Assembly: GCA_049720225.1 (NCBI GenBank)
Contig: JBNASD010000001.1
Coordinates: 228,733 to 292,732, forward strand
DNA: 64,000 nucleotides
Direction of reading: 5' to 3'
DNA from: Microgenomates group bacterium
Lineage (GTDB): Bacteria > Patescibacteriota > Microgenomatia > PFEM01 > JBNASD01
The notes under the pieces were generated by a model. That model was given only the letters and a program-made list of their open reading frames with translations. It was not told the origin of the DNA and ran no database searches. Made by a program: the position numbers and the translations under genes. Numbering within the stretch: position 1 is the first letter of the stretch; every line of letters begins with the position of its first letter. Of this stretch, positions 1 to 53,196 are shown one piece after another.

Positions 1-387
1 AACAATTATCTTTTTTCTTGCCCATTTTTCTGCTTTTTTTAAAATTTCGTAACCCACCTTTTTAGGTAGATGTTCTAAAACCTCTATCATTATCACCGCA
101 TCAAAACTTTTTTCCGGAAAATCTACATCTTCAATTTTTTTATTTAAATATTTAGTGTGAATTTTTCTTTTTTTAGATTCTTCCAAATAAGGTTTAAATA
201 TTTCTACCCCAACGGAGTATTTAATCCATTTACAATATTGAAGAGGCGAGGATGGACCGCAACCCAAATCTAAAACACTTTCGCAATCTTTAAGTTCTTT
301 TTTAAGACAATAATTTAAGGTATGAAAAATTCTTCCCAAGAAATCAGAATTATGAAGATTGTTTATTATTTTATCGACTAAACTCAT
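1..387 (-). CDS. Class I SAM-dependent methyltransferase, 3'-truncated by the window edge. The N-terminus is at 387; the ORF track does not list this ORF.
   Basis: The reverse-strand translation begins MSLVDKIINNLHNSDF. It contains a glycine-rich motif I VLDLGCGPSSP, a post-I motif VGVEI, and FDAVIMIEVLEHLP typical of Methyltransf_11/25-type enzymes. Its ATG overlaps the stop of the downstream GT2 gene in an ATGA arrangement. Confidence 0.6.
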   Translation of the reverse strand, partial: MSLVDKIINNLHNSDFLGRIFHTLNYCLKKELKDCESVLDLGCGPSSPLQYCKWIKYSVGVEIFKPYLEESKKRKIHTKYLNKKIEDVDFPEKSFDAVIMIEVLEHLPKKVGYEILKKAEKWARKKIIV

Positions 388-1418
388 TTTAACTTATATT
401 GAAAATTAATTTTTTTAATAGCTTTTGCATAAATATTATTTTTATACCAATCAACTAAGCGAATTAAAATAAAGGGAGGAGTAATTACTGCCAAAATTGC
501 GCATCCCCAAAAAATGGGAGAAAAAATATTTTCCGGTCGGTATTTTAAAAGATAATAAATTTCCCTTAGGGTATACAAATAATTATGCCGGGAATAGTTT
601 TTAATCTGAAATAACCCCACATAATTAGTGGCTACAAAATCTTTAATCATTTTTTTTCTAAAATCATTATATTTTTTTTCTTTATAAACATTGTTAAACA
701 TATCTATCCAACTTTTTATTGGCGATTTATCATAAATCCAGGATACTTTTCTTGCTTGGCTACTGGTAATTCTTACTGCTACTAAATAATCTCTTAAAAA
801 AACCACGGGGTGTTTTTTAAAAATTGAAGCAAATGGATAAACATGACAAGGAAAAATATCTTCATGAAAGGGAATATCCATATATTTCCTTCTGAAAGCC
901 AAACCAGAAAGTTGATCTAAAGTACTAAACATAGTAATAATTTCTTCAATTGGAGAATCAATTGTTAAAATTATATCTTCTTTTTCGCTCAATCTTTTTT
1001 TAATTCTTACTGGTTTTTCTGGCTTTTCATAAAACCAAAAGTAAGGTCTAGTAACTGCTCCAATTTCTTCGGATATTTGAAAAGCCTGATATGTTTTTAA
1101 TAAAGCATCTTTTGCCAAAATATCATCTTGTCCCATAAGATAAATAATATCACCCTTTGCTTTCTTTCTTAATTTTTCTAAATTTTTTGAATATCCTAAA
1201 TTTTTTTTATTTAAAAAAAGCTTAATTCTTCTGTCTTTTTTTTGAAATTCCTTTATCACTTTTATTGTATTGTCAGTGGAACAATCATTACTAATAATAA
1301 GTTCAAAATTATCAAAACTTTGAGAAAGAATGCTTTTTAAAGTAGGAGAAATTACTTTTTCTCCATTATAAACTGGCATTAAAATGCTAAATTTTAAATT
1401 AAACTTTTTTTTACCCAT
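384..1418 (-). CDS. Family 2 glycosyltransferase (GT-A fold).
   Basis: The N-terminus FSILMPVYNGEKVISPTLKSILSQSF...ELIISNDCSTDNT is a classic GT2 Rossmann-like nucleotide-sugar-binding region, with the DxD region at GQDD. Confidence 0.85.
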   Translation of the reverse strand: MGKKKFNLKFSILMPVYNGEKVISPTLKSILSQSFDNFELIISNDCSTDNTIKVIKEFQKKDRRIKLFLNKKNLGYSKNLEKLRKKAKGDIIYLMGQDDILAKDALLKTYQAFQISEEIGAVTRPYFWFYEKPEKPVRIKKRLSEKEDIILTIDSPIEEIITMFSTLDQLSGLAFRRKYMDIPFHEDIFPCHVYPFASIFKKHPVVFLRDYLVAVRITSSQARKVSWIYDKSPIKSWIDMFNNVYKEKKYNDFRKKMIKDFVATNYVGLFQIKNYSRHNYLYTLREIYYLLKYRPENIFSPIFWGCAILAVITPPFILIRLVDWYKNNIYAKAIKKINFQYKLK

Positions 1419-2295
1419 TTTTTTTAAAAATTTTAATAAAATAATAACTTCCCCCCACTAATCCTCTCAAAAACCACATTCCTAAAGCTAAAATTGGATG
1501 TTTTATTAAATTTTTCCATTTTCCATTTTCCATAAACACCCCAAAATAACGATACCAAAAACCAAATTGTTTACGAATATCTAAATCTTTTTCTCCCCAT
1601 TTTTTAATATAATTTTTCGCTGTAATTGCATATTTTCTTTTTTTACTTAGGTATTTTTTAAGAGTTAAGTTTTCTTCATGATGATATATTTTATTTTTAG
1701 TAATTGTAATTTTCGCTTCCAGGGATTTAATCTTTTTATTAAAATCCCAATCATCAAATCCAAAGGCAATATTTTTTTCATCAAATCCTCCTACTTTTAG
1801 AAATATACTTTTTTTAATAGCTCTTACCGCATCAATGCAAGTTTGATTATAAAAGCTTCTTTCAAAATCTCTAATTTTACCAAATATTCCTCTCCCAATA
1901 ACTCTTTCTGGAATAAATAAAGCATCAAATTTTTTTTCTCTAATTAATTCAACTATTTCTTCTATTAATTTTTTATCAAAAGTCATATCGGCATCAGGAA
2001 AAAATATTATTTCTCCTCTACTTTTCTTCACACCAAAATTTAATTGAGCCCCCCGGAAATTAATTATTTTTTTCTTTTTAACATCACTCTCAGAAGGATA
2101 ATTATAGACTTTCAAAGTATATTTTTTTGCAACTTCCTTAGTTTTATCCTCAGAATTATTATCTACTACAATAATTTCTATTTTTTGAGAAGGATAACTT
2201 TGGGCTTTAATACTTTCCAAGCAATTACCAATATTTTTTTCTTCGTTTTTGGTAGTAATTACTACAGAAACTAATGGTAAGTTTTTATTTTTCAT
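1411..2295 (-). CDS. Family 2 glycosyltransferase.
   Basis: VSVVITTKNEEKNIGNCLESIKAQSYP...EIIVVDNNSEDKTKEV and FFPDADM (DxD) match the GT2 family. Confidence 0.8.
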   Translation of the reverse strand: MKNKNLPLVSVVITTKNEEKNIGNCLESIKAQSYPSQKIEIIVVDNNSEDKTKEVAKKYTLKVYNYPSESDVKKKKIINFRGAQLNFGVKKSRGEIIFFPDADMTFDKKLIEEIVELIREKKFDALFIPERVIGRGIFGKIRDFERSFYNQTCIDAVRAIKKSIFLKVGGFDEKNIAFGFDDWDFNKKIKSLEAKITITKNKIYHHEENLTLKKYLSKKRKYAITAKNYIKKWGEKDLDIRKQFGFWYRYFGVFMENGKWKNLIKHPILALGMWFLRGLVGGSYYFIKIFKKNG

Positions 2296-3821
2296 TTAAA
2301 ATCTCTTCTTTTACTTAACCATTTCCATCCTAACCAAGCATAATATTTTGTTTTTTCCCAATCGGTTAGCGCTTCTTTGGTTTTTCGCCATAAAAATTGA
2401 GGGGTTAAAAAGGAGCTATAAATTTTTCTTACCAACTCCATCAATTCTTCATCTTTCATTGGAGTTTTCATTACTGGTTCTTTCATATCATATCTATCCC
2501 AATCCAAAGTTTTTAACCAACCATTTTTTTTACATTCTTCAAAAAGAGGTGTTCCTGGATAAGGAATCACCAACGTAGCTTGAAGAGTATCTACCAATCC
2601 TTTTTTAAAAAACTCCCGCGCCATATTTAAAGTTCGCAGGGCATCTTTCTTGGTCTCCCAAGGATAACCAACCATTACCGTAATATGAGGCCATAAACCG
2701 GCTTTTTTGGCCATTTTTAAATTTTCTTCAATTTGCTCAACTTTTAAATTTTTATTTATTTTATCAAGCGTTTTCTGGTTGGCGGATTCTAACCCATAAA
2801 GCAAAAAACGAAATCCTGCTTTTGCCATTAAATTATAATCTTTTTGTGTCAAACCGCTATTAAATCGCATATTACAATCAATTTTTATTTTTTTATTATA
2901 TCCTCGCTTAATCATTCCTTCACAAAATTCTTTTAACCAATCACCAACCGGAAAACTCCCACTATCATCCATAATTTCTTTAATTGGCCAGTTTTCTAAA
3001 ATATAGCCAATTTCATCCAAAGCTCTTTTGGGTGACATTACTCGATAACAACTACCGGGATATAAAGTAGTCCAACTACAAAAAGAGCATCTCCCCCACC
3101 AACAATCTCTTCCAAACATCGTATAAGTACCTGGAGTTCGGGAATAATTACTGTTTTTGTAAGCATAAAGTTGCCAACCAGTTAATTCTCGATCAACAAA
3201 CGGTAAAGTATCTAAGTTATGGTTAAGTTTAAAATTTCCTGTAGATTGCCAACTTTGAGATTTAAGTTGGAGTTTTGCGTTTTGCGCTTTACACTTTAAC
3301 TTTTTTCTATACCAAATTCCCGGTTCTAATTTTTCTCCTTCGGTTAGATGTTTAACTAAATTAAGCATCAAAAAATCATAATCCCCTCCCGTCAAAACAA
3401 AATCCACCGGCGAATTTTGTAAACTTTCTTCCGGCAAAGCGGTTACGTGATCTCCAACCAACGCAATCTTTAATTTTGAGTTTTTAGCTTTAAGTTTTGA
3501 AATAATCTTCCAATGCTTTTTAACAACCGGCGTTTTTGTTTCTATTATTAATAAATCGGGCTTTTCTTTTTTAAAATCTCCAAACCATTCCTTAAAAGTT
3601 TGCCCTTTGGCAATTCCATCTAACCAAACAACTTCAAAACCTGCTTTTTTAAGCATCGTCGCTCCATAAGCAGGAACCACCGGATAAGCGGTCCAAGGAG
3701 CGGTGGCCCACTGAAATTGGCGATTTTGCCCTAAAAACGGAATTCCTTTAGGAGAATCAAGCGGTGGATAACCAATGACTATTTTCATTGAAAATATTGT
3801 ATCATAATAATTAAGAAACAA
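2292..3821 (-). CDS. B12-binding-domain / radical SAM protein (class-B-like) with a non-canonical cysteine spacing.
   Basis: The N-terminal region has flavodoxin-like B12-binding features (LLIIETKTPVV, KIALVGDHVTA). The Cys cluster is DCWWGRCSFCSW, which is Cx4Cx2C rather than CxxxCxxC. The downstream region (SPKRALDEIGYI...IKIDCNMRFN...LYGLESANQKTLDKINKN) is a radical SAM TIM-barrel. Confidence 0.7.
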   Translation of the reverse strand: MFLNYYDTIFSMKIVIGYPPLDSPKGIPFLGQNRQFQWATAPWTAYPVVPAYGATMLKKAGFEVVWLDGIAKGQTFKEWFGDFKKEKPDLLIIETKTPVVKKHWKIISKLKAKNSKLKIALVGDHVTALPEESLQNSPVDFVLTGGDYDFLMLNLVKHLTEGEKLEPGIWYRKKLKCKAQNAKLQLKSQSWQSTGNFKLNHNLDTLPFVDRELTGWQLYAYKNSNYSRTPGTYTMFGRDCWWGRCSFCSWTTLYPGSCYRVMSPKRALDEIGYILENWPIKEIMDDSGSFPVGDWLKEFCEGMIKRGYNKKIKIDCNMRFNSGLTQKDYNLMAKAGFRFLLYGLESANQKTLDKINKNLKVEQIEENLKMAKKAGLWPHITVMVGYPWETKKDALRTLNMAREFFKKGLVDTLQATLVIPYPGTPLFEECKKNGWLKTLDWDRYDMKEPVMKTPMKDEELMELVRKIYSSFLTPQFLWRKTKEALTDWEKTKYYAWLGWKWLSKRRDFK

Positions 3822-3857: not shown

Positions 3858-5696
3858 ATGGCACTAACCAGAAAACAAAAAAAAGAATTAAAAAAACTAG
3901 TTAAAACAAAAACACTAAAAGAGACGGTAGAAATTCTTAATATTGACGAAAAAGAGGCTAAAAATTATCTTTTGGATATCTGGGGAAAGGAAAAATATCA
4001 GAAAAGAGTAAAGGAAAATTTAGTTGTTCACTCTTTATCAAAATCAAAATTAATCCTTCCTGAAAGTTTTAAATTTAAAGAGTGGTTAAAGATTAATAAG
4101 AAAATTTTATTTTTTCTTTTTTTTCTGGTTTTAGCGACCTACGCTGTAGCTCTACCTAATGAATTTATTTCTGATGATCTTCCTGCTATTGTCGAAAATC
4201 CTAAAATTTCTAATTTTAGTTACTTTTTTAGTTCTCAGTTTCCTTTATATTTTAATCTTCGTAATTTTTTATATTTTTTAATTAATAAAATTTTTGGTCT
4301 TAATCCAATTCCCTTCCGGTTAATAAACATTTTTTTTCATTTAGGAACAGTTTTTTTAATTTATCTTCTCCTTCATTTCTTCTTTCCCTCTCCTCTTCCT
4401 TTCTTTACCGCCAGTCTTTTTGCGGTTCATCCTATTTTAATAGAGGCAGTTACTTGGATTTCCGGCGGTCCTTATTCCCAAGCAGGCTTTTTTATTCTCC
4501 TTTCTCTGCTTTTTTGGATTTTTTTAACTAAAACTCAACAAAAAAAATTCCTTTTTTATTCACTAATTTCTTTTTTATTGGCCCTCAATACTTCAGAGAG
4601 AGTAATTTGGTTTTTGGCAGTTATTTTTCTTTATGAAATCTTTTTTGGAAAAATCAAAAATCACCTCAAATATCTTTTTCCTTACTTTATCTTAGTGGTT
4701 TTTTGGATAGTTTATATTTTTAAACTCGCCAGTCAACGATTGGTCGCCTTAGAAACAGTTTATTACCAAGAACCAGGATTAGATAATCCCTTAATTAAAA
4801 TTCCTATTGCGATTACCTCTTATCTAGAATTAATCTTTTGGCCGCAAAAACTTACTTTTTATCATTCGGAACTTAATTTTAGTCTTCAAGAGTTTTATTT
4901 TCGTTGTTTTATTTTTCTACTATTATTATCCCTTATTGGTTGGTTTTTAAAAAGGGATCGCCGAATCGCTTTTTGGTTTATATTTTTTATCCTTACTCTT
5001 TCTCCCACTCTCACTCCCTTACGAATCTCTTGGGTGGTAGCAGAAAGATATGTATACCTAGGAACAGTAGGAGTTTTGATTTTTATCGCCTTTTTAATTC
5101 AAAAAATTGGAGAAAAACTTAAAAACCAAAAGATCTCTTGGGGAATACTAGTCATTATTCTAATTACCTTAAGTATTCGCACTGTCTTTCGCAATTTAGA
5201 TTGGCGTAATCAAGACATTTTATGGTTTGCAACTGCCAAATATTCTCCTTCCTCTCACCAAAATCACAATAATTTAGGAAATACATATGCCCGTCGCGGT
5301 GATTATCAAAAAGCACTTGAAGAGTTTCAAACCGCTATTAAACTTAAACCAAACTACGCCGATGCTTACCACAATTTAGCCAACACTTACCATCAAATTG
5401 GTAAAGATGACTTAGCAGAAGAAAATTACAAAAAAGCTTTAGAAATTAATCCTAACCTTTGGCAAACTCATCAAAACTTAGCAGCATTGTATTTTTTAAA
5501 AAAAGATTATTTATCGGCAGAAAATCATCTTCAACAAGCCATAAAAATTAATCCCAAAAATCCGGAACTTTACATTAACTTAGGAATTCTTTACTCCCAA
5601 ATGGGTGATAAACAAAAAGCCCATGAAGCTTTCCAAAAAGCTCTGACCTTAGATCCCCAAAATCAAACAATCAAACAATTTTTATTAAATCTATAA
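3858..5696 (+). CDS. TMTC-like multi-pass membrane protein with C-terminal TPR repeats; putative GT-C fold O-glycosyltransferase.
   Basis: A K-rich cytoplasmic N-terminus of about 90 aa contains an HTH-like stretch TLKETVEILNIDEKEAKNYL. It is followed by about 10 predicted TM helices. The C-terminus has at least five TPR-like repeats (NLGNTYARRGDYQKALEEFQTAIKLKPNYADAYHNLANTYHQIG...). This is the membrane-domain-plus-TPR architecture of TMTC/DUF1736 proteins. Confidence 0.65.
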   Translation: MALTRKQKKELKKLVKTKTLKETVEILNIDEKEAKNYLLDIWGKEKYQKRVKENLVVHSLSKSKLILPESFKFKEWLKINKKILFFLFFLVLATYAVALPNEFISDDLPAIVENPKISNFSYFFSSQFPLYFNLRNFLYFLINKIFGLNPIPFRLINIFFHLGTVFLIYLLLHFFFPSPLPFFTASLFAVHPILIEAVTWISGGPYSQAGFFILLSLLFWIFLTKTQQKKFLFYSLISFLLALNTSERVIWFLAVIFLYEIFFGKIKNHLKYLFPYFILVVFWIVYIFKLASQRLVALETVYYQEPGLDNPLIKIPIAITSYLELIFWPQKLTFYHSELNFSLQEFYFRCFIFLLLLSLIGWFLKRDRRIAFWFIFFILTLSPTLTPLRISWVVAERYVYLGTVGVLIFIAFLIQKIGEKLKNQKISWGILVIILITLSIRTVFRNLDWRNQDILWFATAKYSPSSHQNHNNLGNTYARRGDYQKALEEFQTAIKLKPNYADAYHNLANTYHQIGKDDLAEENYKKALEINPNLWQTHQNLAALYFLKKDYLSAENHLQQAIKINPKNPELYINLGILYSQMGDKQKAHEAFQKALTLDPQNQTIKQFLLNL

Positions 5697-5704: not shown

Positions 5705-6790
5705 TCATTTTCTACTTCTTAAAATAAAAAATTTACCCTTTTTAGTAGTTCTTTCTCCAATCACTTCACAAAAACCAAAAGCTTCTTTTAAAATCTCTAA
5801 AAAAATATTTTTATATCCTTCTCCCACTACTAAAAAAATTTCTCCTCCCTTTTTAATCTTTTTTTTAACATCTCTAAATAAAAATGAAAGATCTTCTCTT
5901 TTTTTATGAAAGGGGGGATTAGATAGAACTAGATCAAATTCTTCAGAGGGAACACTTTCAATTCCCAAATAAAGCTTTGTTCTATTAAGAAGTCCAAAGT
6001 TTCTAACATTTTCTTCTGAAATTAAAATTGCACTTCTACTAACATCAACCATCGATATTTCTGCTTCTTCATTAATAAAACCAGCTACTACCCCAATTAC
6101 TCCCCATCCACATCCTAAATCAAGGATTTTTTCCGCCCTGCGAATTTTTCCTTCTGTTTCTTCCAATAAAAATCTCGTCCCTTCATCTAATTCCTGCCAA
6201 GAGAAAAGCCCTGGTAAACTCCTCATCTCAAAACTTCTGCCAAATAAATTAAATCTAACTAAAGTAGGTTGTTTTTCTTGAACTTCATTATTTCTTTTTA
6301 TTGCCCTCAAAATTCTGTATCCTCCCCTTCCTTTAGCTATAATTTCCATTTCTCCTAAAACTTTTTTTATTACCTCTCCTTGCCCCTCAAGACCCCAATT
6401 TTTATGAGTAATCACATAAATAACTCCTCCTTCTCTTAAATAATTAGCTAATCTTCTTAACCAATAATCAAAAGTTTCTTGAGACATAAAATTACTTAAA
6501 GAAAGAAGCGCTCCATCAAACTTTTCGGATGCAGGCAGTTTAGTTAATAAATCTACATTTCCAATTGGAATATCACTATCCATTACGCTATCGATTTCTT
6601 TTTCTTCCTCTAAATTATCTTGATAAACACAAAAAGCAACATTAGGTATTGCTCCTAAAAAATTTAAAAAAGCCTTTTTATTCGGATTTAAAATTAAAAC
6701 ACGACTTCCTTTCTCAAACTCAATATCAGCGAGAAGCGGAAAATATTTCAGCTCATCTTTTCGTGATAATCGTAAAGGAGAATTAATCAT
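5705..6790 (-). CDS. rsmC: RsmC/RlmG-like rRNA (guanine-N2-) methyltransferase, with a two-lobed methyltransferase architecture.
   Basis: The C-terminal catalytic lobe has ILDLGCGWGVIGV (motif I) and DLVLSNPPFH (the NPPF/H N-methyltransferase motif). A non-catalytic methyltransferase-like lobe sits at the N-terminus. The 361-aa length fits RsmC. Confidence 0.6.
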   Translation of the reverse strand: MINSPLRLSRKDELKYFPLLADIEFEKGSRVLILNPNKKAFLNFLGAIPNVAFCVYQDNLEEEKEIDSVMDSDIPIGNVDLLTKLPASEKFDGALLSLSNFMSQETFDYWLRRLANYLREGGVIYVITHKNWGLEGQGEVIKKVLGEMEIIAKGRGGYRILRAIKRNNEVQEKQPTLVRFNLFGRSFEMRSLPGLFSWQELDEGTRFLLEETEGKIRRAEKILDLGCGWGVIGVVAGFINEEAEISMVDVSRSAILISEENVRNFGLLNRTKLYLGIESVPSEEFDLVLSNPPFHKKREDLSFLFRDVKKKIKKGGEIFLVVGEGYKNIFLEILKEAFGFCEVIGERTTKKGKFFILRSRK

Positions 6791-6892: not shown

Positions 6893-7240
6893 TTAAACAA
6901 TAAAAAATCTTTCTTTATTTTTTTTATTTTTATTAAATTTATTAAAAATAACTCTTTCATCAAAAATATCTAAAACTTTAAACCTCGCTTTTTCTAGAAG
7001 AAAAATTATTGATTTCTTCGCAAAAAAGGTAATATGTCCTTCATTTTTAAGAAATGGGTTATAATTCCGACAAGTTATTGAGGCTAATCCCCCAACATCT
7101 CCAGTATCAATCAAAATAATTCCCTCCGGCAAAAGCTTTTCAAAGGTAACAAATCATCACTTATCAAATTTAGCGCTTTAAAAATGTTCTCTTTTCTTGT
7201 TTTTTCTTTAACTAAAGCAACCTTACCTGCCATATTTTGA
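6893..7240 (-). pseudogene. Apparent frameshifted gene remnant, made of two short ORFs in different frames.
   Basis: The 5' piece MAGKVALVKEKTRKENIFKALNLISDDLLPLKSF ends at a stop near 7139. It is followed in another frame by LPEGIILIDTGDVGGLASITCRNYNPFLKNEGH... (track ORF 6893..7132). The two pieces would be contiguous without the frame shift and loosely resemble the N-terminus of a DUF362-type protein. Non-coding AT-rich sequence flanks them. Confidence 0.3.
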
Positions 7241-8263
7241 TTTTAAATTAGGGGTAAAAAATCCTTTAAGAAATAAAATTCCGTAAACTAAATGGGTAAT
7301 AAAAATTGCGGGAATCACCAAGAAAGCTACTTTCCAATTTCTTTCTTGACGATAAACATCCCAAGCAGTAAAAAGTAAAGCAAGTAAATAAAAACTAATT
7401 ACTCCCCAATAAAACCAATTTAATAAATTACTTAAAAAATAAAATTCTAATTTTTTCGCGAAAAAGATTATAATTGGTCCACCTATTAATCCTAAAACAA
7501 AAAAGGTAGGCAATAAATATCCCAACCGAAATGAAGTTTTAGGAATGACTCGAGCAAAATATCCTCGATGGAGAGCATAACGAGAAATTTGCCGTAAATG
7601 AGGCCTAAAAATTTCTCGCCGATGATGATAGACCAAAACAGTGGGGTCGTAAATTATTTTTTTTCCTAATTTATATACTAAATCATGACACAATTTCGTA
7701 TCTTCTCCTGGCCAAAAAGAAGAATTAAATCCTCCTACTTGAAAGAAGTCTTTTTTTCTTACCAATAAATTGACGCTCGGATAATCATCAACTTCTCGAC
7801 GTGATTTAATTGCACACCGATAATTTCCTGCTCCCCCACTTCCTAAAAAAGTTGACCAAACATAGCCTGAAGTTTTTTGGAGAATATTATCTTGAGGAGG
7901 AGTAATTGCCGGACCACAAACGCCAACAATTAGTGATGGATTAAATTTTTTAAGATTAAAAATTTTTAAGGCATTTTTTAACCAATCTTTAACTGGATAA
8001 GAATCATCATCTAAAAAGGCTAAAATCTCTCCTTTTGCCTTTTTAGCTCCTAAATCTCGCTTATCTGCTGGTCCTATTTTTGGCCAAGAGGGAATAATTT
8101 TAATCCTTTTATCAGAAAATTTTTCTTTTGTTTTTTTGTCAGGAAGAATAATTACCTCAAATTTTTTTTCACTTTGAGATAAAATTGCCGGAATTGTTTC
8201 TTTTCTTAAATAATCATTAATCTCTTTTACCGGAATAATAATGGAAAACAAAACTTTTTTCAT
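7223..8263 (-). CDS. Family 2 glycosyltransferase with a C-terminal multi-TM domain.
   Basis: FSIIIPVKEINDYLRKETIPAILSQ...EVIILPD and AFLDDDSYP (DxD) match GT2. The last roughly 110 aa are hydrophobic (three or four helices). Confidence 0.8.
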   Translation of the reverse strand: MKKVLFSIIIPVKEINDYLRKETIPAILSQSEKKFEVIILPDKKTKEKFSDKRIKIIPSWPKIGPADKRDLGAKKAKGEILAFLDDDSYPVKDWLKNALKIFNLKKFNPSLIVGVCGPAITPPQDNILQKTSGYVWSTFLGSGGAGNYRCAIKSRREVDDYPSVNLLVRKKDFFQVGGFNSSFWPGEDTKLCHDLVYKLGKKIIYDPTVLVYHHRREIFRPHLRQISRYALHRGYFARVIPKTSFRLGYLLPTFFVLGLIGGPIIIFFAKKLEFYFLSNLLNWFYWGVISFYLLALLFTAWDVYRQERNWKVAFLVIPAIFITHLVYGILFLKGFFTPNLKSKYGR

Positions 8264-9192: not shown

Positions 9193-9989
9193 CCGATATT
9201 AACTTTAAAATTTAACTCGGGGTCCCAACGCCATTTTCTTTTGTTTTTATCATCATAATAATGCAAAATATGAAGGCGATAAAAAACTGCTAAAGTGTCT
9301 ATCAGCATTTCCCAAACGGTTTTAAATTTAATCGTGCTGGTAAATTTAAATTGCTCTGGATTTATCTTTATTGGCGCCTCATAAATTTTTTTAAAACCTA
9401 ATCGGCGAGCTACTGCTAATAGTTCCACATCAAAAGCAAATTTTTTTACTAATAATCGCGGCAACACCTTTTCCAAAACCTCTCTTTTAAAAATTTTTAA
9501 ACCAGTTTGGGTATCTTTCACTTTTAATCCAAAAAGAAACCAAATTAACATCTGATAACCAAAACTATAAATTTTTCTTAAAAAGGGATATTCCACTTGA
9601 GAAGCAGGATGACGCTTAGAACCAACAATAATATCTGCTCCATACCATTCCATATGTTCCAAAATCATCGCTAAACCATTAGGGTCAATATCCATTCCCG
9701 CGTCAATAAAAGCAATTAAATCTCCTTTCGTTCTTGCCATTCCATATCGAACTGCATACCCTTTTCCTCTATTAGTTTTGTAACCAACTACCTTAATTTT
9801 TTTTCCTTGAAGTTTTTTTGCTTTTTGATAAGTTTTATCAATCATCCCATCAACAACAATAATCAGTTCATAATCATAACGCATTTTTTCTAATACCCTC
9901 TTAATTTGTTTAATATCCTCCACAATCGTTTTCTCTTGTTTATAAGCAGGAACAACCACCGAAAGAAAATGAGAATTATCTTTTCTCAT
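9189..9989 (-). CDS. GT2 polyprenyl-phosphate glycosyltransferase (Dpm1/ArnC-like).
   Basis: LSVVVPAYKQEKTI...ELIIVVDGMIDKT, AFIDAGMD, and the KVKDTQTGLKIFKREVLEKV (..DTQ.G.K) loop are typical of Dpm1/ArnC/GtrB enzymes. There is a 4-nt overlap with uxs downstream. Confidence 0.8.
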   Translation of the reverse strand: MRKDNSHFLSVVVPAYKQEKTIVEDIKQIKRVLEKMRYDYELIIVVDGMIDKTYQKAKKLQGKKIKVVGYKTNRGKGYAVRYGMARTKGDLIAFIDAGMDIDPNGLAMILEHMEWYGADIIVGSKRHPASQVEYPFLRKIYSFGYQMLIWFLFGLKVKDTQTGLKIFKREVLEKVLPRLLVKKFAFDVELLAVARRLGFKKIYEAPIKINPEQFKFTSTIKFKTVWEMLIDTLAVFYRLHILHYYDDKNKRKWRWDPELNFKVNIG

Positions 9990-47220: not shown

Positions 47221-48303
47221 ATGAAAAATTTTTTGATTATCGCCTTTTTGGTGGTTTTTTCTTCTTTATTGGTTTGGCTTCCTTTTTCTTTAAAAAACGA
47301 AATGCTTAAAGTTTTTGCTAACTACGATGGCCCAAATTATCTTATTGTCGCGAAAACTTGGTATCAAAAAAACTTAATAAGAGAAAAGTTTGAATTTCCT
47401 CTTCCTTTAGAATATTATCCTGCTCATTTTCCTGGATATCCCGCAATAATTAGAGTTTTTAATTTTTTTCTTCCTGGCCCCTGGGCAATGCTAATTGCTA
47501 CTGTTTTTTCTACCATTTTAATGGCAGAAATTTTTTATCTTTTTCTTAAAAAAAACAGTTTTTCTAAATTCCCTTTATGGTTAACTTTTGTTTTCCTTTT
47601 TTTTCCTGCGCGATTTTTAGTAGTAAGAACGATTGGAGCTCCTGAGTCACTTTTTATTTTTGCTATTTTGACTTCTTTTTATTTTTTCCGCCTTAAAAAA
47701 TGGTGGCTTGCCGGACTTTTTGGAGCACTAGCGCAAATTACCAAATCTCCTGGAATTCTTTTGTTTATTGCTTACATAATTATTATTCTGAAAGAGGGGT
47801 TAAAAACAAAAAAGTTTAATTTTAAAACTTATCCCCTTCTTTTGATTCCTTTTTCTTTATTGGGAGTTTTTCTTTTTTATTATCAAAAAACAGGTAATTT
47901 TTGGGCTTACTTTCATTCGGGAGACAACTTTCATTTGTTCTTTCCTCCTTTTCAAATTTTTAAAACTGGTCGCTCGTGGATAGGAGATTTTTGGTTAGAA
48001 GATGTAATTTATATTTATCTTTTAGGAATTTTAACAATTATTTTTTTGATCAAAAAAAGGTATTTTGATTTAGCTACGTTCGCGGGCATTTTTTATTTAA
48101 CTACTCTATTTATCGCTCACCGTGACTTATCGCGATATTCTCTTCCTCTTGTTCCTTTTAGTTTAATCGCCTTTAGTGATTTTTTGGAAAAAAAGGAGTT
48201 TAAAATTGCTTTCTTTTTTATTCTTATTCCTATTTATCTTTATACTCTCAATTTTATTTCTTATAATGTTGCTCCTATTGGAGAGTGGCAACCTTTTCTT
48301 TAA
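47221..48303 (+). CDS. PIG-V/DUF2029-like GT-C membrane glycosyltransferase, paralogue of 11219..12343.
   Basis: NYDGPNYLIVAKTWYQ...YYPAHFPGYPAIIRVF and KKWWLAGLFGALAQITKSPGILLFIAYIII are collinear with 11219..12343. Confidence 0.5.
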   Translation: MKNFLIIAFLVVFSSLLVWLPFSLKNEMLKVFANYDGPNYLIVAKTWYQKNLIREKFEFPLPLEYYPAHFPGYPAIIRVFNFFLPGPWAMLIATVFSTILMAEIFYLFLKKNSFSKFPLWLTFVFLFFPARFLVVRTIGAPESLFIFAILTSFYFFRLKKWWLAGLFGALAQITKSPGILLFIAYIIIILKEGLKTKKFNFKTYPLLLIPFSLLGVFLFYYQKTGNFWAYFHSGDNFHLFFPPFQIFKTGRSWIGDFWLEDVIYIYLLGILTIIFLIKKRYFDLATFAGIFYLTTLFIAHRDLSRYSLPLVPFSLIAFSDFLEKKEFKIAFFFILIPIYLYTLNFISYNVAPIGEWQPFL

Positions 48304-49055
48304 TCATAAAAACCGCGCCAATCATTAAATTTTACCCGCAAAATTTCTTTAAACATTTCCTTTGATTCCTTAAAAAAATTTCTTTTCTTTCCTACTGCAA
48401 TGTCTTTGTCTATCCATTCAACAGGGACTTCGGCAATTTTATATCCTCTTTTTTGAGCAATAAATAAAAGTTCGACATCAAAAGCCCCTACTCGCCAACC
48501 TTTTACTTGGGTAGGATTTTTAAAAATTAGAAGTTGAGAAAACAAATCTTTAGCTACCTTATTTTTAAAAGCTTTAAAACCACATTGGGTATCTTTAATT
48601 TCTCGCAATAATAAAATTTGTCTAAAACTACGAAAAACTATTGAGGCAACTTTTCTTAAAATTGAAAAACCCTTTCTTTCTAATCCTCGACTCCCTATCA
48701 CCACGTCATAATTCTTTTCAAAAAAAGGAAAAAATTTTTCAATTTCTTTTAAGGGGGTTGATTGATCCATATCGGTAAAAAGAACAATTTTTCCTTTTGC
48801 TTTTTGAATTCCTGCCTTAACCGCAAATGGCTTACCTCCGTGAGGATTTTTTAAAAGAAGAAAAGAAGGATTTTTTTGACAATATTTTTCTAAAAAATTT
48901 AGGCTTCCATCAGTAGAACCATCATCGGAAATAATCACTTCCCAATCATATTTTTGTTTTTTAAGGTAATTTTTTACTTCGTCTAAAACTCCTCTTTTTA
49001 AATTCTTTTCTTCATTGTAACAGGGAATTACTACCGATAAAAATGGTTTTTTCAT
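48300..49055 (-). CDS. GT2 polyprenyl-phosphate glycosyltransferase (Dpm1/GtrB-like).
   Basis: LSVVIPCYNEEKNL...EVIISDDGSTDGS, LFTDMDQSTP and IKDTQCGFKAF. Confidence 0.8.
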   Translation of the reverse strand: MKKPFLSVVIPCYNEEKNLKRGVLDEVKNYLKKQKYDWEVIISDDGSTDGSLNFLEKYCQKNPSFLLLKNPHGGKPFAVKAGIQKAKGKIVLFTDMDQSTPLKEIEKFFPFFEKNYDVVIGSRGLERKGFSILRKVASIVFRSFRQILLLREIKDTQCGFKAFKNKVAKDLFSQLLIFKNPTQVKGWRVGAFDVELLFIAQKRGYKIAEVPVEWIDKDIAVGKKRNFFKESKEMFKEILRVKFNDWRGFYD

Positions 49056-49777
49056 GAAATTCGCGAAAGTTTTCTTTTAAGTCTAATTAGGTCTTTCAAC
49101 CCACTCCAAATGACCTTTAAACTCGCCCCTGTGGCTTTTCCTGCTTTTCGCGGATAGTGATGTACCCCAATTTGAACAATTTTAAAGCCTTCTTTTTTTG
49201 CTTTAATTAAAAGCTCTGAGGAAATAAACGGTCCTCTTTCTACTTCTAAAGGAGGAATTTTTTCAATTACTTCTTTTTTAATTAATTTAAAACCACAATC
49301 AATGTCTTTCACTTTTAAACCGAAAAGCAAAAATACCGCCAATTCCCATAACTTTGATCCCCAAATTCGATAAAAAGGCACTGCGCGCTTTAAATAGTAA
49401 CCAATAACTAAATCCGCTCCTGTTTCTTTTTGTTTTTCAAAAAATTTTGTAATTTCAGAAAAATCAAATTGCCCATCCGCGTCAGTAAAAGCAATCCACT
49501 TATATTGAGAATTATAAAAACCTGATTTTAAAGCCGCCCCATAACCTCTGTTAGGAGTATGAGTAATCATTCTTATTCGCGGTTCTTTTTTCATTAATTT
49601 TTTGACAATTTCTCCTGTTTTATCTTTTGAACCATCATCAACTACAATTATCTCCCATTTTTCAGCGACTTCATTTAAAACCGCAATTGCTTTTTCTACC
49701 GTTTCTTTAATGTTTGCTTCTTCATTATAAGCAGGAAAAAAGACTGAAAGTTCTTTTATTTTTTGTTTTTTAGTCAT
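49052..49777 (-). CDS. GT2 polyprenyl-phosphate glycosyltransferase (Dpm1/GtrB-like).
   Basis: LSVFFPAYNEEANI...EIIVVDDGSKDKTGEI, AFTDADGQFD and VKDIDCGFKLIKKEV. Confidence 0.8.
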   Translation of the reverse strand: MTKKQKIKELSVFFPAYNEEANIKETVEKAIAVLNEVAEKWEIIVVDDGSKDKTGEIVKKLMKKEPRIRMITHTPNRGYGAALKSGFYNSQYKWIAFTDADGQFDFSEITKFFEKQKETGADLVIGYYLKRAVPFYRIWGSKLWELAVFLLFGLKVKDIDCGFKLIKKEVIEKIPPLEVERGPFISSELLIKAKKEGFKIVQIGVHHYPRKAGKATGASLKVIWSGLKDLIRLKRKLSRIS

Positions 49778-49778
49778 T

Positions 49779-50966
49779 TTAACCTATCCTTTCTTGAATC
49801 CTTTTTAAAAAGGGAACTTTCCATGTTTTCCAGATAAAAATATTATACATTGAATAATTATAAGGAATAACAAAGAATCCGATCGCAATTACTAAATAAA
49901 TCTGCCGCCATTGATCGCCAAAAATTTTCGCTAAAATTCCCACTACTAACCATTGTAATATTACTGCCCCTAATGAAGTCAAGTTGAATTGAAAAAATTT
50001 CCAAATAATTCGCTTAAAACCAGTAATTCTTTTTTCTGAAAATGTCCACAAATTATTTAAGGTAAAATTAGAAATAATTGCTAATTCTGCACCTAATCCC
50101 GCCGCTGGTCCGGGAGATAAACCCAATCGATAAAAAAGTTCCAAACCTAAAGCATTAATTATATACCCAATAAAACCCACTACCGCAAATTTTAAAAAAC
50201 GAATTGTTGTCGGATCATTTAAGCGTAATTTTATTACTCCCAAAAATGTATTTATCACCTCTTTAAAAGTAATCTTGCTTTCTCCTTTTTCTCGTAATTT
50301 AAACTTTAAAGGAATTTCTATTATTTTAGCTCCGTTTTTAACAATCTGATAAAGAATTTGCGTCTTATAAAAGAATCCATTTCCAACCTGACTAAAATCA
50401 ACTTTATCTAAAACCCCTTTCACGCGCGTTAATTTTAACCCTGTGGAAACATCTTTTACTTTATTTATTTGAGGAAAAAATAAGACAAAACGACTAAATA
50501 ATCCCCCTCCAATAGTTAAAAGTTTTCGATACCAACTCCATTCTTTGGGAATTGAACCGCCCTTTACAAAGCGAGAACCAATTACATAATCATATCCTTG
50601 ATCAAATTTTTCTACTAAATCAATAATATAGCGTGGATCATGTTGAAAATCTGCGTCAAATTCAATTACCGCCGCCGCCCCCATTTTTTCCATGGCATAT
50701 TTCATTCCTCTTTTATAAGCCGCTCCTAATCCTTGTTTTTTCCCTAAAGAAAGGTGAATATTGGAATATTTTTTCATTTTTTCTTTCACTACATCGGCAG
50801 TCCCATCTGGAGAATTATCATCAACTACTAAAATTTCCATCTGGTGATTTTTAATCTGAGGAAAAATTTCTTCTTCTAAAACATCAATCATTTTTTGAAT
50901 ATTTTCTTTCTCGTTGTAAGTGGGAATAATTACAATAATCTTCATTTTTGTACCCTTTCTCGCCAA
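49779..50966 (-). CDS. GT2 polyprenyl-phosphate mannosyl/glycosyl-transferase with a C-terminal GtrA-like 4-TM domain (Ppm1/Dpm1-like).
   Basis: IIVIIPTYNEKENI...EILVVDDNSPDGTADVV, EFDADFQHDP, VKDVSTGLKL, and a C-terminal FLKFAVVGFIGYIINALGLELFYRL... (GtrA-like). Confidence 0.8.
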   Translation of the reverse strand: MARKGTKMKIIVIIPTYNEKENIQKMIDVLEEEIFPQIKNHQMEILVVDDNSPDGTADVVKEKMKKYSNIHLSLGKKQGLGAAYKRGMKYAMEKMGAAAVIEFDADFQHDPRYIIDLVEKFDQGYDYVIGSRFVKGGSIPKEWSWYRKLLTIGGGLFSRFVLFFPQINKVKDVSTGLKLTRVKGVLDKVDFSQVGNGFFYKTQILYQIVKNGAKIIEIPLKFKLREKGESKITFKEVINTFLGVIKLRLNDPTTIRFLKFAVVGFIGYIINALGLELFYRLGLSPGPAAGLGAELAIISNFTLNNLWTFSEKRITGFKRIIWKFFQFNLTSLGAVILQWLVVGILAKIFGDQWRQIYLVIAIGFFVIPYNYSMYNIFIWKTWKVPFLKRIQERIG

Positions 50967-51907
50967 TAGTTTAACAAATCTTTTAAAGTTTTTCTAAGGG
51001 GAATTTTTGGCTTCCAGCCTGTTTTTTGCCGAAATTTCGAATTATCTCCCTGTAAAATCGGTACATCCGAAGGTCGCATTCTTGCCGGATCTTGAACTAT
51101 TTTTACTTTTATTTTGCTCATTTCTAAAAGCATCTCCAAAACTTGAGAAATTTTTACTGCTTTTCCTGAGCAAATATTATAAACTTCCCCTGGTTCTCCT
51201 TTTAAAACCGCCAGTAAGTAACCGTTAACCATATCCCTAACATCAGTATAATCCCTTTTGGCTTCTAAATTACCAACGTAAATTACCGGTTCTCTTTTAC
51301 CTTTTTCTGCCTCCGCAATTTGTTTGGCAAAAGTTGATTCGGCAAAAACTTCTCCCCGCCGAGGTCCGGTATGATTAAAACCCCGAGTTCTAACAATCTT
51401 CATTCCGTAACTTTTAAAGTACTGATATCCTAAATAATCCATTGCCAGTTTAGAAACCGCATAAGGACTGAGAGGTCTTAAAGGATTGGTTTCTTTAATG
51501 GGAACTTCTTCTGGTTTTACTAAGCCATATTCTTCCGAAGAACAAGCAATTTGAATCACTGGATCGATTTTAACTGCTCTTATCGCTTCAAATAAATTAC
51601 ATGAACCAATAACATTAATTTCTAAAGTTGCTGCTGGTGAAGTCCAAGAAGCAGGAACAAAACTTTGGGCTGCCAAGTGAAAAACAAAATCCGGTCTTGC
51701 ATCTATCAATGACTTTTGTAATGAATTAAGATCAAGAAGGTCTCCTTCAATTAAATGAATTTTATTTTTAATATGTTCAATATTTTCTGTTCGCGATCGC
51801 CATCGACAAAGACCATAAACCTCCCAACCTTTTTTCAAAAGTAAATCTGCCAAATGAGAGCCAGCAAAACCGGTAATTCCGGTGATAAAAGCAACGGGTT
51901 TTTTCAT
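50942..51907 (-). CDS. rmd: Gmd/Rmd-family NDP-4-keto-6-deoxyhexose reductase (Rmd-like).
   Basis: AFITGITGFAGSHLADLLLKKGWEVYG, HLAAQSFVPASWTSPAATLEINVIGSCNLFEAI, SPYAVSKLAMDYL, TRGFNHTGPRR and VYNICSGKAVKISQVLEMLLEMSKIKVKIVQDPARMRPSDVPILQGDNSKFRQKTGWKPKI align block-for-block with GDP-4-keto-6-deoxy-D-mannose reductase (Rmd), not with RmlD. Confidence 0.7.
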   Translation of the reverse strand: MKKPVAFITGITGFAGSHLADLLLKKGWEVYGLCRWRSRTENIEHIKNKIHLIEGDLLDLNSLQKSLIDARPDFVFHLAAQSFVPASWTSPAATLEINVIGSCNLFEAIRAVKIDPVIQIACSSEEYGLVKPEEVPIKETNPLRPLSPYAVSKLAMDYLGYQYFKSYGMKIVRTRGFNHTGPRRGEVFAESTFAKQIAEAEKGKREPVIYVGNLEAKRDYTDVRDMVNGYLLAVLKGEPGEVYNICSGKAVKISQVLEMLLEMSKIKVKIVQDPARMRPSDVPILQGDNSKFRQKTGWKPKIPLRKTLKDLLNYWRERVQK

Positions 51908-53196
51908 CTCCCTACTCCTAAATAACGAAAACCTAATTTTTCCATTTTTTCTTTATCTAAAATATTTCGGCTATCAAAAATAAAACTACCCTTCATTATT
52001 TTTTTTATTTTAGCAAAATTTAAATTTCCAAACTCAGGCCAATCAGTTAAAATTAACAAACCATCAACATCTTTTGCTACTTCATAAGCATCCCGAGAAA
52101 ATTCAACATTTTCTAAAACTTTTTTCGCATTTTCCGTTGCCAAAGGATCATAAGCTTTTACTTTTGCTTTCTTTTTCAAAAGCAAGTTTATTACTTTAAT
52201 TGCGGGTGATTCCCGAATATCATCAGTTCCCTGTTTACAGGCTAAACCTAAAACTCCTATTTTTTTATTTTTAAAAGAACCAAAGGTATCCTCTACTCGT
52301 TTTAAAGTCCGAGGGATTCTTTCTTTATTTAAAGAATGGATCTTGGCAAATAAAGAGCGAGAAATTCTTTTTTTTCTAGCAAAATTAGCCAAAGCAGAAA
52401 CATCTTTAGGAAAACAACTTCCTCCATAACCTAATCCCGGATACCAATAATGAAGACCAATTCTTTTATCCATTCCCATTCCTTTAATCACCTCTTCAAT
52501 ATCTGCCCCACATTTCTCGCACAAATCAGCAATTTGGTTAATAAAAACAATTCTTAAGGCTAAATAAGAATTAGCGGCATATTTTATTAGTTCGGCACTT
52601 TCAATTTTAGTAATTAAAATCGGTGCTTTAAAACTTTCATGAAGTTTTTTTAAGATTTCTGCTACCTTTTTATTTTCTGTTCCAATGACCACTCTATCGG
52701 GATGTTTAGTATCCTCCACCGCGCTTCCTTCTTTCAAAAATTCTGGACAAAAAGCTAACCCAAATTTTGCTTTTTTTGGTTTATATTTTTCAATTATTTC
52801 TCCAATTTTTCGCGTGGTTCCCGGAGGAGAAGTGCTTTTATTGACAATAATTGTAAAATTTGAAGAAAGATTTTTGCCTATTTCCTTACTCGCTTCAAAC
52901 ACTTGCCTTAAATCAACCGCTCCGTTTTTCAAAGAAGGCGTACCAACCGCAATAAAAACAACTTCAGAAAAAGGAATTGCTTGGGAATATTCGGTAGTAG
53001 GAATAAATCGATTAACGGATAAATTTTTCTTCACTAGCTCTTCCAATCCTAGTTCGAAAAAATGAATTTTTCCCTTTTTAAGGGCTTCGTTTTTTTCTTT
53101 ATCTTTTCTGACTACCCAAACCTTATGTCCCAAATCCGCCAAAACTGCTGCCAACGTCAAACCTACATAACCAGCGCCGACTACGCTAATATTCAT
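51904..53196 (-). CDS. ugd: UDP-glucose 6-dehydrogenase.
   Basis: MNISVVGAGYVGLTLAAVLADLGHKV is the N-terminal Rossmann fold. GLGYGGSCFPKDV contains the catalytic Cys. The C-terminal UDP-binding domain reads KKIGVLGLACKQGTDDIRESPA. Confidence 0.9.
   Translation of the reverse strand: MNISVVGAGYVGLTLAAVLADLGHKVWVVRKDKEKNEALKKGKIHFFELGLEELVKKNLSVNRFIPTTEYSQAIPFSEVVFIAVGTPSLKNGAVDLRQVFEASKEIGKNLSSNFTIIVNKSTSPPGTTRKIGEIIEKYKPKKAKFGLAFCPEFLKEGSAVEDTKHPDRVVIGTENKKVAEILKKLHESFKAPILITKIESAELIKYAANSYLALRIVFINQIADLCEKCGADIEEVIKGMGMDKRIGLHYWYPGLGYGGSCFPKDVSALANFARKKRISRSLFAKIHSLNKERIPRTLKRVEDTFGSFKNKKIGVLGLACKQGTDDIRESPAIKVINLLLKKKAKVKAYDPLATENAKKVLENVEFSRDAYEVAKDVDGLLILTDWPEFGNLNFAKIKKIMKGSFIFDSRNILDKEKMEKLGFRYLGVGR

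Follow-up and report, generated by a model that had tools for sequence, protein, structure and literature searches.

What does a bacterium with a reduced genome build with a chromosomal island that consists almost entirely of glycosyltransferase genes? The question is raised by a 64,000-bp stretch of contig JBNASD010000001.1 of a Microgenomates group bacterium (the window), in which positions 384..53196 hold a dense glycosylation island. The genomes of Patescibacteria, Microgenomates included, measure ~1 Mb, and many basic biosynthetic pathways are missing from them. Despite this genome reduction, more than 50 kb (roughly 5% of the genome) was kept as an island of almost nothing but glycosyltransferases, and so large a genomic investment suggests that the surface glycan is central to the life of the cell. 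Our analysis of the window and its relatives makes it probable, in our judgment, that the island is a lineage-conserved two-stage machine for complex envelope glycans.

Nonnested open reading frames (ORFs) of ≥90 amino acids were numbered g01 to g50 by coordinate order (n = 50), and Pfam was run on all 50 proteins. The island holds 43 genes (g01 to g43), mostly on the minus strand, with ends that overlap or abut. By Pfam together with family and fold evidence, 32 of the 43 are glycosyltransferases (17 GT-C, 13 GT2, and 2 GT4), the GT-C enzymes making up ~40% of the island genes; by Pfam, 39 of the 43 are glycan related. A preliminary description of this DNA had counted at least 17 polytopic GT-C-like proteins, 13 GT2 enzymes, and three GT4 enzymes. 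The first count was borne out, each protein having independent GT-C evidence, and exactly 13 proteins scored above the PF00535 cutoff. However, only two GT4 enzymes (g11 and g25) were found by Pfam; the third is absent.

GT-C membrane proteins of the island

The 17 candidates for GT-C membrane enzymes are as follows.

3858..5696, plus strand: g04, GT-C membrane domain with C-terminal TPR repeats, a TMTC-like architecture (10 transmembrane [TM] segments; TPR_1, 120 bits; weak PMT_2, 17 bits; DD in loop 1)
11219..12343, minus strand: g10, short GT-C, paralogue of g38 (32% identity, E = 1e-16; FDG in loop 1)
15846..17414, minus strand: g14, ArnT/PMT_2-like GT-C (blastp to g37, 1e-9; 9 TM segments)
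18193-19872, 19869-21509, 21506-23134, and 23109-24836, minus strand: g16 to g19, tandem PMT_2 GT-C paralogues (PMT_2 33 to 54 bits, above cutoff)
26530..28524, plus strand: g22, rare GT-C-like protein, distant relative of g31 and g32 (hhalign to the g31 family; 12 TM segments)
28654..29934, minus strand: g23, PMT_2/DUF2142-like GT-C (hhalign 93.7%; NCBIfam LA_3751 family, 40 bits)
29921..31186, minus strand: g24, GT87-like GT-C (PF09594, 32.2 bits versus a cutoff of 25)
35843..37819, minus strand: g31, Pfam-less GT-C with predicted oligosaccharyltransferase-like fold (AlphaFold/Foldseek)
37882..39903, plus strand: g32, g31 paralogue, divergently transcribed (37% identity to g31, E = 8e-100)
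41391..43073, minus strand: g34, PTPS_related/YfhO-like GT-C (weak PF10131, 17 bits; hhalign 97.6%, E = 3e-12)
43061..44185, minus strand: g35, short PMT_2-like GT-C (blastp to g19, 2e-6; hhalign 94.2%)
44182-45699 and 45696-47198, minus strand: g36 and g37, PMT_2 GT-C (PMT_2 44.1 and 39.3 bits, above cutoff)
47221..48303, plus strand: g38, short GT-C widespread in Patescibacteria (Pfam matches of homologues; AlphaFold2 model)

All 17 proteins are polytopic, with 6 to 12 hydrophobic segments in a Kyte-Doolittle scan, which tends to undercount TM segments relative to the 8 to 13 TM helices by which a GT-C enzyme is recognized. Each also carries an Asp in the first outside loop, mostly as DE or DD. 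The motif is DE in g16 to g19, g23, g36, and g37 and DD in g04 and g34, with D in g10, g14, g22, g24, g31, g32, g35, and g38. This is the position of the catalytic acid/base in solved GT-C enzymes, and the acidic residue was invariant in the family alignments (D135 in A1, the g31 family; D36 in A4; D33-E34 in A5; D100 in A2). Seven of the 17 scored above a Pfam cutoff (PMT_2 for g16 to g19, g36, and g37; GT87 for g24). The other 10 were tied to GT-C families by blastp, hhalign, the Pfam matches of their homologues, or fold. For instance, g14, g35, and g04 matched PMT_2 proteins of the window by blastp, and when single sequences were used as hhalign queries against an alignment of the window PMT_2 paralogues, probabilities of 94.9%, 93.7%, 96.8 to 97.6%, and 94.2% were obtained for g04, g23, g34, and g35, respectively. 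The g23 family (1832 representatives) showed PMT_2 in 23 and DUF2142 in 9 of 40 sampled members, and Pro-Asp-Glu in loop 1 is invariant across it. The g34 orthologue in a related contig (L004) bears PTPS_related (PF10131).

Could most of these proteins instead be transporters, or polymerases and ligases of the Wzy/WaaL type, the count being inflated by weak resemblance? Single-sequence Pfam was blank for 8 of the 17 and gave only subthreshold matches for another 2, and at E ≤ 10, together with NCBIfam, it returned little or nothing for g10, g14, g22, g31, g32, and g35. However, profile, homologue-family, and fold evidence places all 17 in the GT-C group, five negative controls (the two Wzx flippases, the PAP2 phosphatase, the DgkA kinase, and one GT2 with TM segments) reached at most 6% hhalign probability, and the two predicted structures (g31 and g38) matched only GT-C enzymes ahead of any transporter. 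We therefore find this alternative barely credible; a transporter or Wzy/WaaL-type identity was rejected on the profile and fold evidence with its negative controls. As judged from sequence profiles and predicted folds, the 17 membrane proteins belong to the GT-C superfamily. Polyprenyl-phosphate sugars are their plausible donors, since the same island encodes four Dpm1/ArnC/DPMS-like synthases, one of them fused to GtrA.

The tandem paralogues g16 to g19 share 33 to 37% identity. Two of them exceed the cutoff of the Pfam family PMT (PF02366, 22.7 bits), g17 at 34 and g19 at 35 bits, whereas g16 (21.3) and g18 (20.7) fall below it. In all four, PMT is outscored by PMT_2, which also spans ArnT-type enzymes. 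In sequence, the window PMT_2 paralogues stand about as far from ArnT as from STT3, their profile matching both equally weakly, and no MIR domain was matched in any window protein by Pfam.

Three proteins that the preliminary description had set apart as an unassigned family proved to be a real family with a GT-C fold, by model for g31 and g32 and by hhalign for g22. More than 369 matches were found for the g31 family, all unnamed and without Pfam domains, and its profile matched the window PMT_2 paralogues with 96% hhalign probability (E = 3e-9). The AlphaFold model of g31 (pLDDT 92.4) is an all-helical membrane bundle with a TM core and a C-terminal globular domain of the STT3/AglB/PglB type. 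In Foldseek, STT3, AglB, PglB, and the DPY19 C-mannosyltransferase ranked first (1e-8 to 4e-6); after the oligosaccharyltransferases, the model matched AftA, ArnT, and Pmt, with ALG12 also among the matches. In sequence, g31, g32, and g22 gave no match to Pfam STT3 (PF02516), and the family profile retrieved no PDB sequence at E ≤ 10. A search for WWDYG after the last TM helix of the A1 consensus found no WWD[YWF]G; AWYDT comes nearest, but it is not conserved, g31 having YYNSS there. The predicted GT-C fold of g31 and g32 (with g22) is closest to oligosaccharyltransferases, but with Pfam STT3, a PDB sequence match, and WWDYG all missing, the proteins are not canonical oligosaccharyltransferases. 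g22 has only 7 homologues in the protein database. It aligned to the g31 family over 467 columns at 92.5% hhalign probability (E = 5e-7; 92 to 94% across runs), with the loop-1 Asp aligned, and its GT-C assignment by sequence or profile comes from this hhalign comparison only. Some g31-family members are much longer, at 1030 to 1150 amino acids (P0046, P0047, P0053, P0064, P0096, P0105, P0116, and L002 4147-7581); their ~450-amino-acid extension matched no Pfam domain.

The short type represented by g38 has more than 2800 homologues, the best 120 of which, from Patescibacteria metagenomes and metagenome-assembled genomes (MAGs), share 54 to 81% identity with it. In a sample of 45 family members, PMT was matched in 17 and PMT_2 in 12, and no other family was matched. 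The family profile had no match among PDB sequences. The AlphaFold model (pLDDT 87.8) is again an all-helical membrane bundle, and its top 43 Foldseek matches in the PDB were all GT-C enzymes. The conservation of g38 is unusually high for a membrane glycosyltransferase, which hints at a conserved core acceptor other than the one that the variable paralogues use.

Conservation of the island across Microgenomates

Is the island peculiar to this genome? A scan of one genome per species gave 453 stretches encoding the g31 family, those with informative titles being Daviesbacteria, Woesebacteria, Shapirobacteria, Microgenomates, and Patescibacteria. From these, 56 loci with ~22 kb of sequence were compared, a GT-C match being defined as a phmmer hit at E < 1e-5 to any window GT-C. 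The loci carry 1 to 12 GT-C ORFs each (median 8), the same density as the 17 per 53 kb of the window. The island had been called exceptionally dense. This holds against bacteria generally, as far as is known, but not within the lineage, where such density is usual. Within 10 kb of the g31 homologues of the 56 loci, the following genes recurred.

g34-like GT-C: 54 of 56 loci (118 ORFs in total)
Wzx: 51 of 56 loci
GT2 like g26: 50 of 56 loci
GT2 like g30: 49 of 56 loci
GT4 like g25: 48 of 56 loci
GT87-like g24: 35 of 56 loci
g32: 35 of 56 loci

Gene order was conserved as well. The order g37-g36-g35-g34-Wzx-g32-g31 is retained in relatives at 41 to 59% identity; a relative at 80% identity has a syntenic block with insertions and deletions, and the same kind of island is found in Daviesbacteria and in another metagenomic genome. 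Each of g16 to g19 has separate closest relatives in other genomes, which indicates that the duplications are old and the copies probably not redundant. The comparison thus showed the island type to be conserved in Daviesbacteria, Woesebacteria, and Shapirobacteria, with no characterized organism found to have the same gene order; all relatives of the island are uncultured Microgenomates. Because similar islands occur across these relatives, the organism probably builds a complex surface sugar coat.

Two further observations were made on the related loci. Public MAG records (among loci L006-L080) titled "uncultured Gammaproteobacteria bacterium," "Bathyarchaeia," "Clostridia," and "Nevskiaceae" carry the g31 family, and these non-Microgenomates titles, found on many g31-family records, are probably wrong. 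In the related island L004, a small gene at 14549-14905, between GT2 and GT4 genes, encodes 23S_rRNA_IVP/bAvd domains, which are those of accessory proteins of diversity-generating retroelements.

Proposed pathway and the genes that would supply it

How might so many GT-C enzymes work together? Many GT-C enzymes in series are how the N-glycan precursor in the lumen of the endoplasmic reticulum (ER) and mycobacterial arabinogalactan and lipoarabinomannan (LAM) are built, and in both sets most of the GT-C enzymes extend the glycan rather than attach it to a carrier. By this analogy, most of the 17 are likely to act on glycan acceptors. The remaining island genes and their nearest neighbors are as follows.

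1..385, minus strand: class-I S-adenosylmethionine (SAM) methyltransferase, N-terminal part, running off the left window edge (VLDLGCGPSSP ... EVLEHLP motifs in the translation)
384..1418, minus strand: g01, GT2 (PF00535, 102.7 bits)
1411..2295, minus strand: g02, GT2 (PF00535, 93.5 bits)
2292..3821, minus strand: g03, B12-binding radical SAM enzyme (Radical_SAM and B12-binding domains; HpnJ-like, 171 bits, below cutoff)
5705..6790, minus strand: g05, MTS-type methyltransferase, RsmC/RlmG-like (PF05175, 123.9 bits)
7223..8263, minus strand: g06, GT2 with 3 C-terminal TM segments (Glyco_tranf_2_2 and PF00535; hydrophobicity scan)
8260..9192, minus strand: g07, UDP-glucuronate decarboxylase, UXS (2e-111 versus human UXS1 structures)
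9189..9989, minus strand: g08, fourth Dpm1/ArnC-like GT2 (33% identity to g40, E = 1e-30; best NCBIfam matches PgfS, ArnC, and PpgS)
9976..11217, minus strand: g09, Wzx-type flippase (Polysacc_synt_3 and Polysacc_synt above cutoff; 11 TM segments)
12315..13382, minus strand: g11, GT4 (PF00534, 138 bits)
13388..14152, minus strand: g12, asparagine-synthase C-terminal (PP-loop) domain only, without glutaminase domain (PF00733, 108 bits)
14179..15849, plus strand: g13, ELP3-like radical SAM protein (Radical_SAM and Radical_SAM_C)
17374..18177, minus strand: g15, GT2 (PF00535, 78.7 bits)
24764-25579, minus strand: g20, GT2 (PF00535, 113.6 bits)
25587-26456, minus strand: g21, GT2 (PF00535, 93 bits)
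31161..32315, minus strand: g25, GT4 (PF00534, 79.9 bits)
32213..32986, minus strand: g26, GT2 (PF00535, 68 bits)
32988..33683, minus strand: g27, PAP2 phosphatase (PF01569, 75.8 bits)
33680..34048, minus strand: g28, DgkA-family lipid kinase (PF01219, 107 bits)
34059-34967, minus strand: g29, GT2 (PF00535 and PF13641)
34968-35837, minus strand: g30, GT2 (PF00535 and PF13641)
39907..41394, minus strand: g33, Wzx-type flippase, adjoining the g31/g32 pair, an arrangement that is kept (Polysacc_synt_3, 169.7 bits)
48300-49055, minus strand: g39, polyprenyl-phosphate-sugar synthase (PF00535)
49052-49777, minus strand: g40, polyprenyl-phosphate-sugar synthase (PF00535; ArnC 3e-17, also DPMS and GtrB)
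49779-50966, minus strand: g41, polyprenyl-phosphate-sugar synthase fused to a GtrA/DPMS TM domain (PF00535 and PF04138)
50942..51907, minus strand: g42, Rmd-like GDP-4-keto-6-deoxy-mannose reductase (2e-85 versus 2pk3)
51904..53196, minus strand: g43, UDP-glucose 6-dehydrogenase, Ugd (NDP-sugar dehydrogenase, 456.8 bits, above cutoff)
53951..55686, minus strand: g45 RmlB and g46 RmlA-like (TIGR01181 492.9 bits, above cutoff; rmlA 247 bits, below cutoff)

The supporting genes named in the preliminary description were largely confirmed by these assignments. The two Wzx-type flippases scored above the Polysacc_synt cutoffs, the PAP2 phosphatase and the DgkA-like kinase were verified by Pfam, and the ugd, uxs, rmlA, rmlB, and rmd-like genes are present as g43, g07, g46, g45, and g42, with g45 and g46 lying outside 384..53196. 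The three consecutive Dpm1/ArnC-like synthases at 48300..50966 were corroborated by PDB sequence matches (g41 to DPMS; g40, whose best solved relatives these are, to ArnC, DPMS, and GtrB). g41 matched P. furiosus DPMS over its full length (5mlz, 2e-47), and PgfS was the best NCBIfam match of both g08 and g41. Together with g08, four of the 13 GT2 proteins (g01, g02, g06, g08, g15, g20, g21, g26, g29, g30, g39, g40, and g41) are therefore Dpm1/ArnC/DPMS-like synthases. The PAP2 and DgkA genes adjoin each other both here and in the relative L001; we take g27 to be the undecaprenyl-diphosphate phosphatase and g28 the undecaprenol kinase.

From what is shown above (which families the enzymes belong to, their folds and motifs, and how the genes are ordered and conserved), we infer a pathway, with its donors, order of steps, g31/g32 role, and acceptor. 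Nucleotide sugars would come from Ugd, UXS, the Rmd-like reductase, and RmlA/RmlB, giving UDP-glucuronic acid, UDP-xylose, a GDP-6-deoxyhexose, and a dTDP-6-deoxyhexose intermediate; g45 and g46, located beyond TrmD, probably supply sugar nucleotides to the island. Soluble GT2 and GT4 enzymes would then lengthen an undecaprenyl-diphosphate (Und-PP)-linked oligosaccharide in the cytoplasm, its priming enzyme being encoded outside the window, and the B12 radical-SAM enzyme, the ELP3-like radical-SAM protein, the AsnB-like PP-loop domain, and methyltransferases may tailor the sugars. The two Wzx flippases would carry oligosaccharide intermediates to the external face of the membrane. In parallel, the four DPMS/ArnC-like GT2 enzymes would put single sugars on undecaprenyl phosphate. 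Outside, the 17 GT-C enzymes would use these lipid-phosphate sugars, most of them probably extending or branching the growing glycan, and g31/g32 (and g22) would move the flipped glycan onto its final carrier, replacing Wzy, WaaL, or LCP functions. The predicted oligosaccharyltransferase-like fold and the conserved adjacency to Wzx make g31 and g32 candidates for this final transfer. PAP2 and DgkA would regenerate the lipid carrier. We think that a surface glycopolymer or lipoglycan is what is mainly made, with some envelope proteins possibly glycosylated as well.

The locus had been described as lacking Wzy, Wzz, WaaL, and LCP genes, and within the window this held. No match at E < 0.01 was found among the 50 window proteins for Wzy_C, O-antigen polymerase, Wzz, LytR_cpsA_psr, Bac_transf, or Glycos_transf_4, which could lie elsewhere in the genome, nor for WaaL. 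Thus, of the parts of a conventional Wzx/Wzy locus, Wzx is present (g09 and g33) and the polymerase, chain-length regulator, ligase, and priming enzyme were not found in the window.

Three unusual enzymes, g03, g12, and g13, are set among the glycosyltransferases. They may be unusual sugar-tailoring enzymes (C-methylation and amidation): g03 might C-methylate sugars or tailor them in another way, and g12 is possibly an amidating enzyme. g05 may be a housekeeping gene outside the glycan system. In the ~430-bp gap between g05 and g06, ORFs of 40 and 79 amino acids (6893-7233, minus strand) resemble what a frameshift might leave of a methyltransferase-like gene. The methyltransferase cut by the left window edge indicates that the glycan-related cluster probably extends further to the left. 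The GC content of the whole window is ~29%, with 25 to 31% in the island compared to 33 to 37% in the right housekeeping flank (TrmD, RNaseH-like, and RtcB). tRNA and Rfam scans of the window found no element, including none marking the island boundary, and therefore nothing points to a mobile element having integrated at a tRNA.

Alternative products, significance, and known systems

Does the island instead glycosylate proteins? In a general protein O-glycosylation machinery, the GT-C enzymes would place sugars on Ser/Thr residues of proteins that are secreted or at the surface, for example g49 and g50, and would lengthen these sugars, resembling actinobacterial Pmt or the streptococcal GtrB+PgtC2 and Pgf systems. 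The PMT/PMT_2 matches in the island, the TPR domain at the C terminus of g04 (as in TMTC protein O-mannosyltransferases), the predicted fold of g31/g32 closest to the peptide-modifying STT3, AglB, PglB, and DPY19, and PgfS as the best NCBIfam match for g08 and g41 all speak for it. There is also a precedent, since the streptococcal systems of GT2 plus GT-C (GtrB+PgtC2 and Pgf) glycosylate Ser/Thr-rich regions of envelope proteins (PMC12041528, PMC5856776). However, in known protein O-glycosylation systems one or two GT-C enzymes suffice, the PMT_2 family extends to ArnT and polymer-acting enzymes, the profile matches ArnT and STT3 equally weakly, and both MIR domains and WWDYG are absent. The nearby g49 and g50, one a CAP protein whose linker is rich in Pro/Thr/Lys and the other a giant surface protein, had been named as obvious candidate substrates, but TrmD, an RNaseH-like gene, and RtcB stand between them and the island, and their Ser/Thr content is a modest 12% (g49) and 16% (g50). 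In the 56 loci, homologues of g49 and g50 were not found within 10 kb of the g31 homologues, a range that would not reach them in the window either. The preliminary description had gone as far as a candidate O-mannosylation-like protein machinery. Of this, the GT-C identity, the plausible polyprenyl-phosphate donors, and the lack of Wzy, Wzz, WaaL, and LCP stand; the O-mannosylation part, with proteins as putative acceptors and mannose as the putative sugar, has partial support, the PMT_2 paralogues being about as far from ArnT as from STT3 and without a MIR domain. We consider a general protein O-glycosylation machinery possible but unlikely. A narrower proposal is that a two-stage, ER-like pathway exists phylum-wide and that g31/g32, with g22 as an outlier, transfers the flipped glycan, once elaborated outside the cell, en bloc to envelope proteins, with a recognition unlike that of WWDYG-type oligosaccharyltransferases. 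This we rate as quite unlikely; if true, it would mean a new class of bacterial oligosaccharyltransferase in the most GT-C-rich prokaryotic system known. As to the giant surface protein itself (58959-64000, minus strand), it has SdrD_B, SpaA, PKD, CarboxypepD_reg, and DUF11 repeats and C-terminal TM anchors, and since no upstream stop was found before the window end, it is longer than 1637 amino acids.

Nor need there be a single product. The island might consist of several independent three-component decoration modules (a GtrB-like GT2, GtrA, and a GT-C) together with an ordinary Wzx-dependent polymer or two. A single side-chain sugar would then be added by each GT-C to a wall polymer, teichoic-acid-like or other, without a single serial pathway. 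This would account for the four separate polyprenyl-phosphate-sugar synthases with the GtrA domain, the two Wzx flippases, and the gain or loss of single GT-C or GT2 genes by which relatives differ. PTPS_related/YfhO-like GT-C genes in the island fit too; YfhO is the GT-C enzyme that glycosylates lipoteichoic acid in Bacillus and Listeria. However, no TagB/F, LtaS, or TarI/J teichoic-acid genes were found in the window by Pfam, and 17 GT-C enzymes for 4 donors would imply many distinct acceptors. A core of ~10 genes whose order is kept across distant Microgenomates fits one coordinated pathway better, and we hold separate modules to be very unlikely. The reading that we prefer, a two-stage machine for complex envelope glycans, has points weighing against it as well. 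Protein roles were assigned from families and predicted folds in a MAG of an uncultured organism, and the acceptor cannot be read from sequence. The window encodes no priming phosphoglycosyltransferase, so that the Und-PP branch is incomplete here, and in place of one pathway there may be several small systems in the island, each independent of the others.

A search of open-access papers and preprints found no description of such an island in Microgenomates, Patescibacteria, or the candidate phyla radiation. The enzyme class and its chemistry are already known; what appears to be undescribed so far is the scale (17 GT-C and 32 glycosyltransferases in 43 genes), the conservation in a reduced-genome lineage, and the oligosaccharyltransferase-like family without Pfam domains. 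A surface glycan could be used for host attachment, for protection, or for the evasion of phages and predators. The Pfam-less GT-C families (the oligosaccharyltransferase-like one with hundreds of members and the short g38 type) are targets for biochemistry even though their hosts are uncultured, and they would widen the enzyme catalogue for glycoengineering.

Which known systems does the island resemble? With the ArnT lipid A pathway (Ugd, ArnA, ArnB, ArnC, ArnD, ArnE/F, and ArnT), it shares Ugd, the ArnC-like g40 (3e-17), and PMT_2/ArnT-like GT-C enzymes, and both sequence and fold comparisons gave matches to ArnT. However, neither an ArnA formyltransferase nor an ArnB aminotransferase nor ArnD was found, a plain UXS serves as the decarboxylase, and these bacteria are not known to make lipid A. 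The Gram-positive three-component systems (GtrB/CsbB/PgfS, GtrA/GtcA, and YfhO/PgtC2/PgfM1/M2) have their counterparts in a GtrB/PgfS-like GT2, the GtrA domain (PF04138 on g41), and GT-C enzymes, all present here. In streptococci, their targets are Ser/Thr-rich stretches of proteins of the envelope (PMC12041528, PMC5856776); elsewhere, they modify teichoic acids. Such systems make do with a single donor and one or two GT-C enzymes, whereas the island has 17 GT-C enzymes, 4 synthases, 2 Wzx flippases, and 11 further GT2/GT4 enzymes, numbers far beyond a single module.

Two further parallels are serial pathways. The ER N-glycan pathway (ALG GT2/GT4, RFT1, ALG3/9/12/6/8/10, DPM1/ALG5, and STT3) uses the same classes of parts that the island combines in one locus, namely, soluble GT2/GT4 enzymes, MOP-family flippases, DPM1/DPMS-like synthases, multiple GT-C enzymes, and, in the g31 model, an STT3-like GT-C with an AglB-like C-terminal domain. 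However, the g31 family lacks Pfam STT3 and WWDYG and the window has no ALG7/WecA-type primer, and the resemblance is one of architecture only. The mycobacterial and corynebacterial GT-C suite (EmbA/B/C, AftA-D, PimE, and GT87; arabinogalactan and lipomannan/LAM) likewise works in series outside the membrane on polyprenyl-phosphate donors made by GT2-type enzymes, and some of its genes lie in clusters with those of GT2 enzymes and exporters. The g31 and g38 models have AftA, AftB, AftD, PimE, and Emb among their structural matches, and the island encodes a GT87-like protein (g24). In contrast, the window has no UbiA/DprE-type genes for decaprenyl-phospho-arabinose, and the large C-terminal carbohydrate-binding domains of the Emb type are apparently lacking in the island proteins, a point that was not tested in detail. 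The organism belongs to another phylum, with no mycolate outer membrane involved, and the density is far higher per genome, with 17 GT-C enzymes in 53 kb of a ~1-Mb genome.

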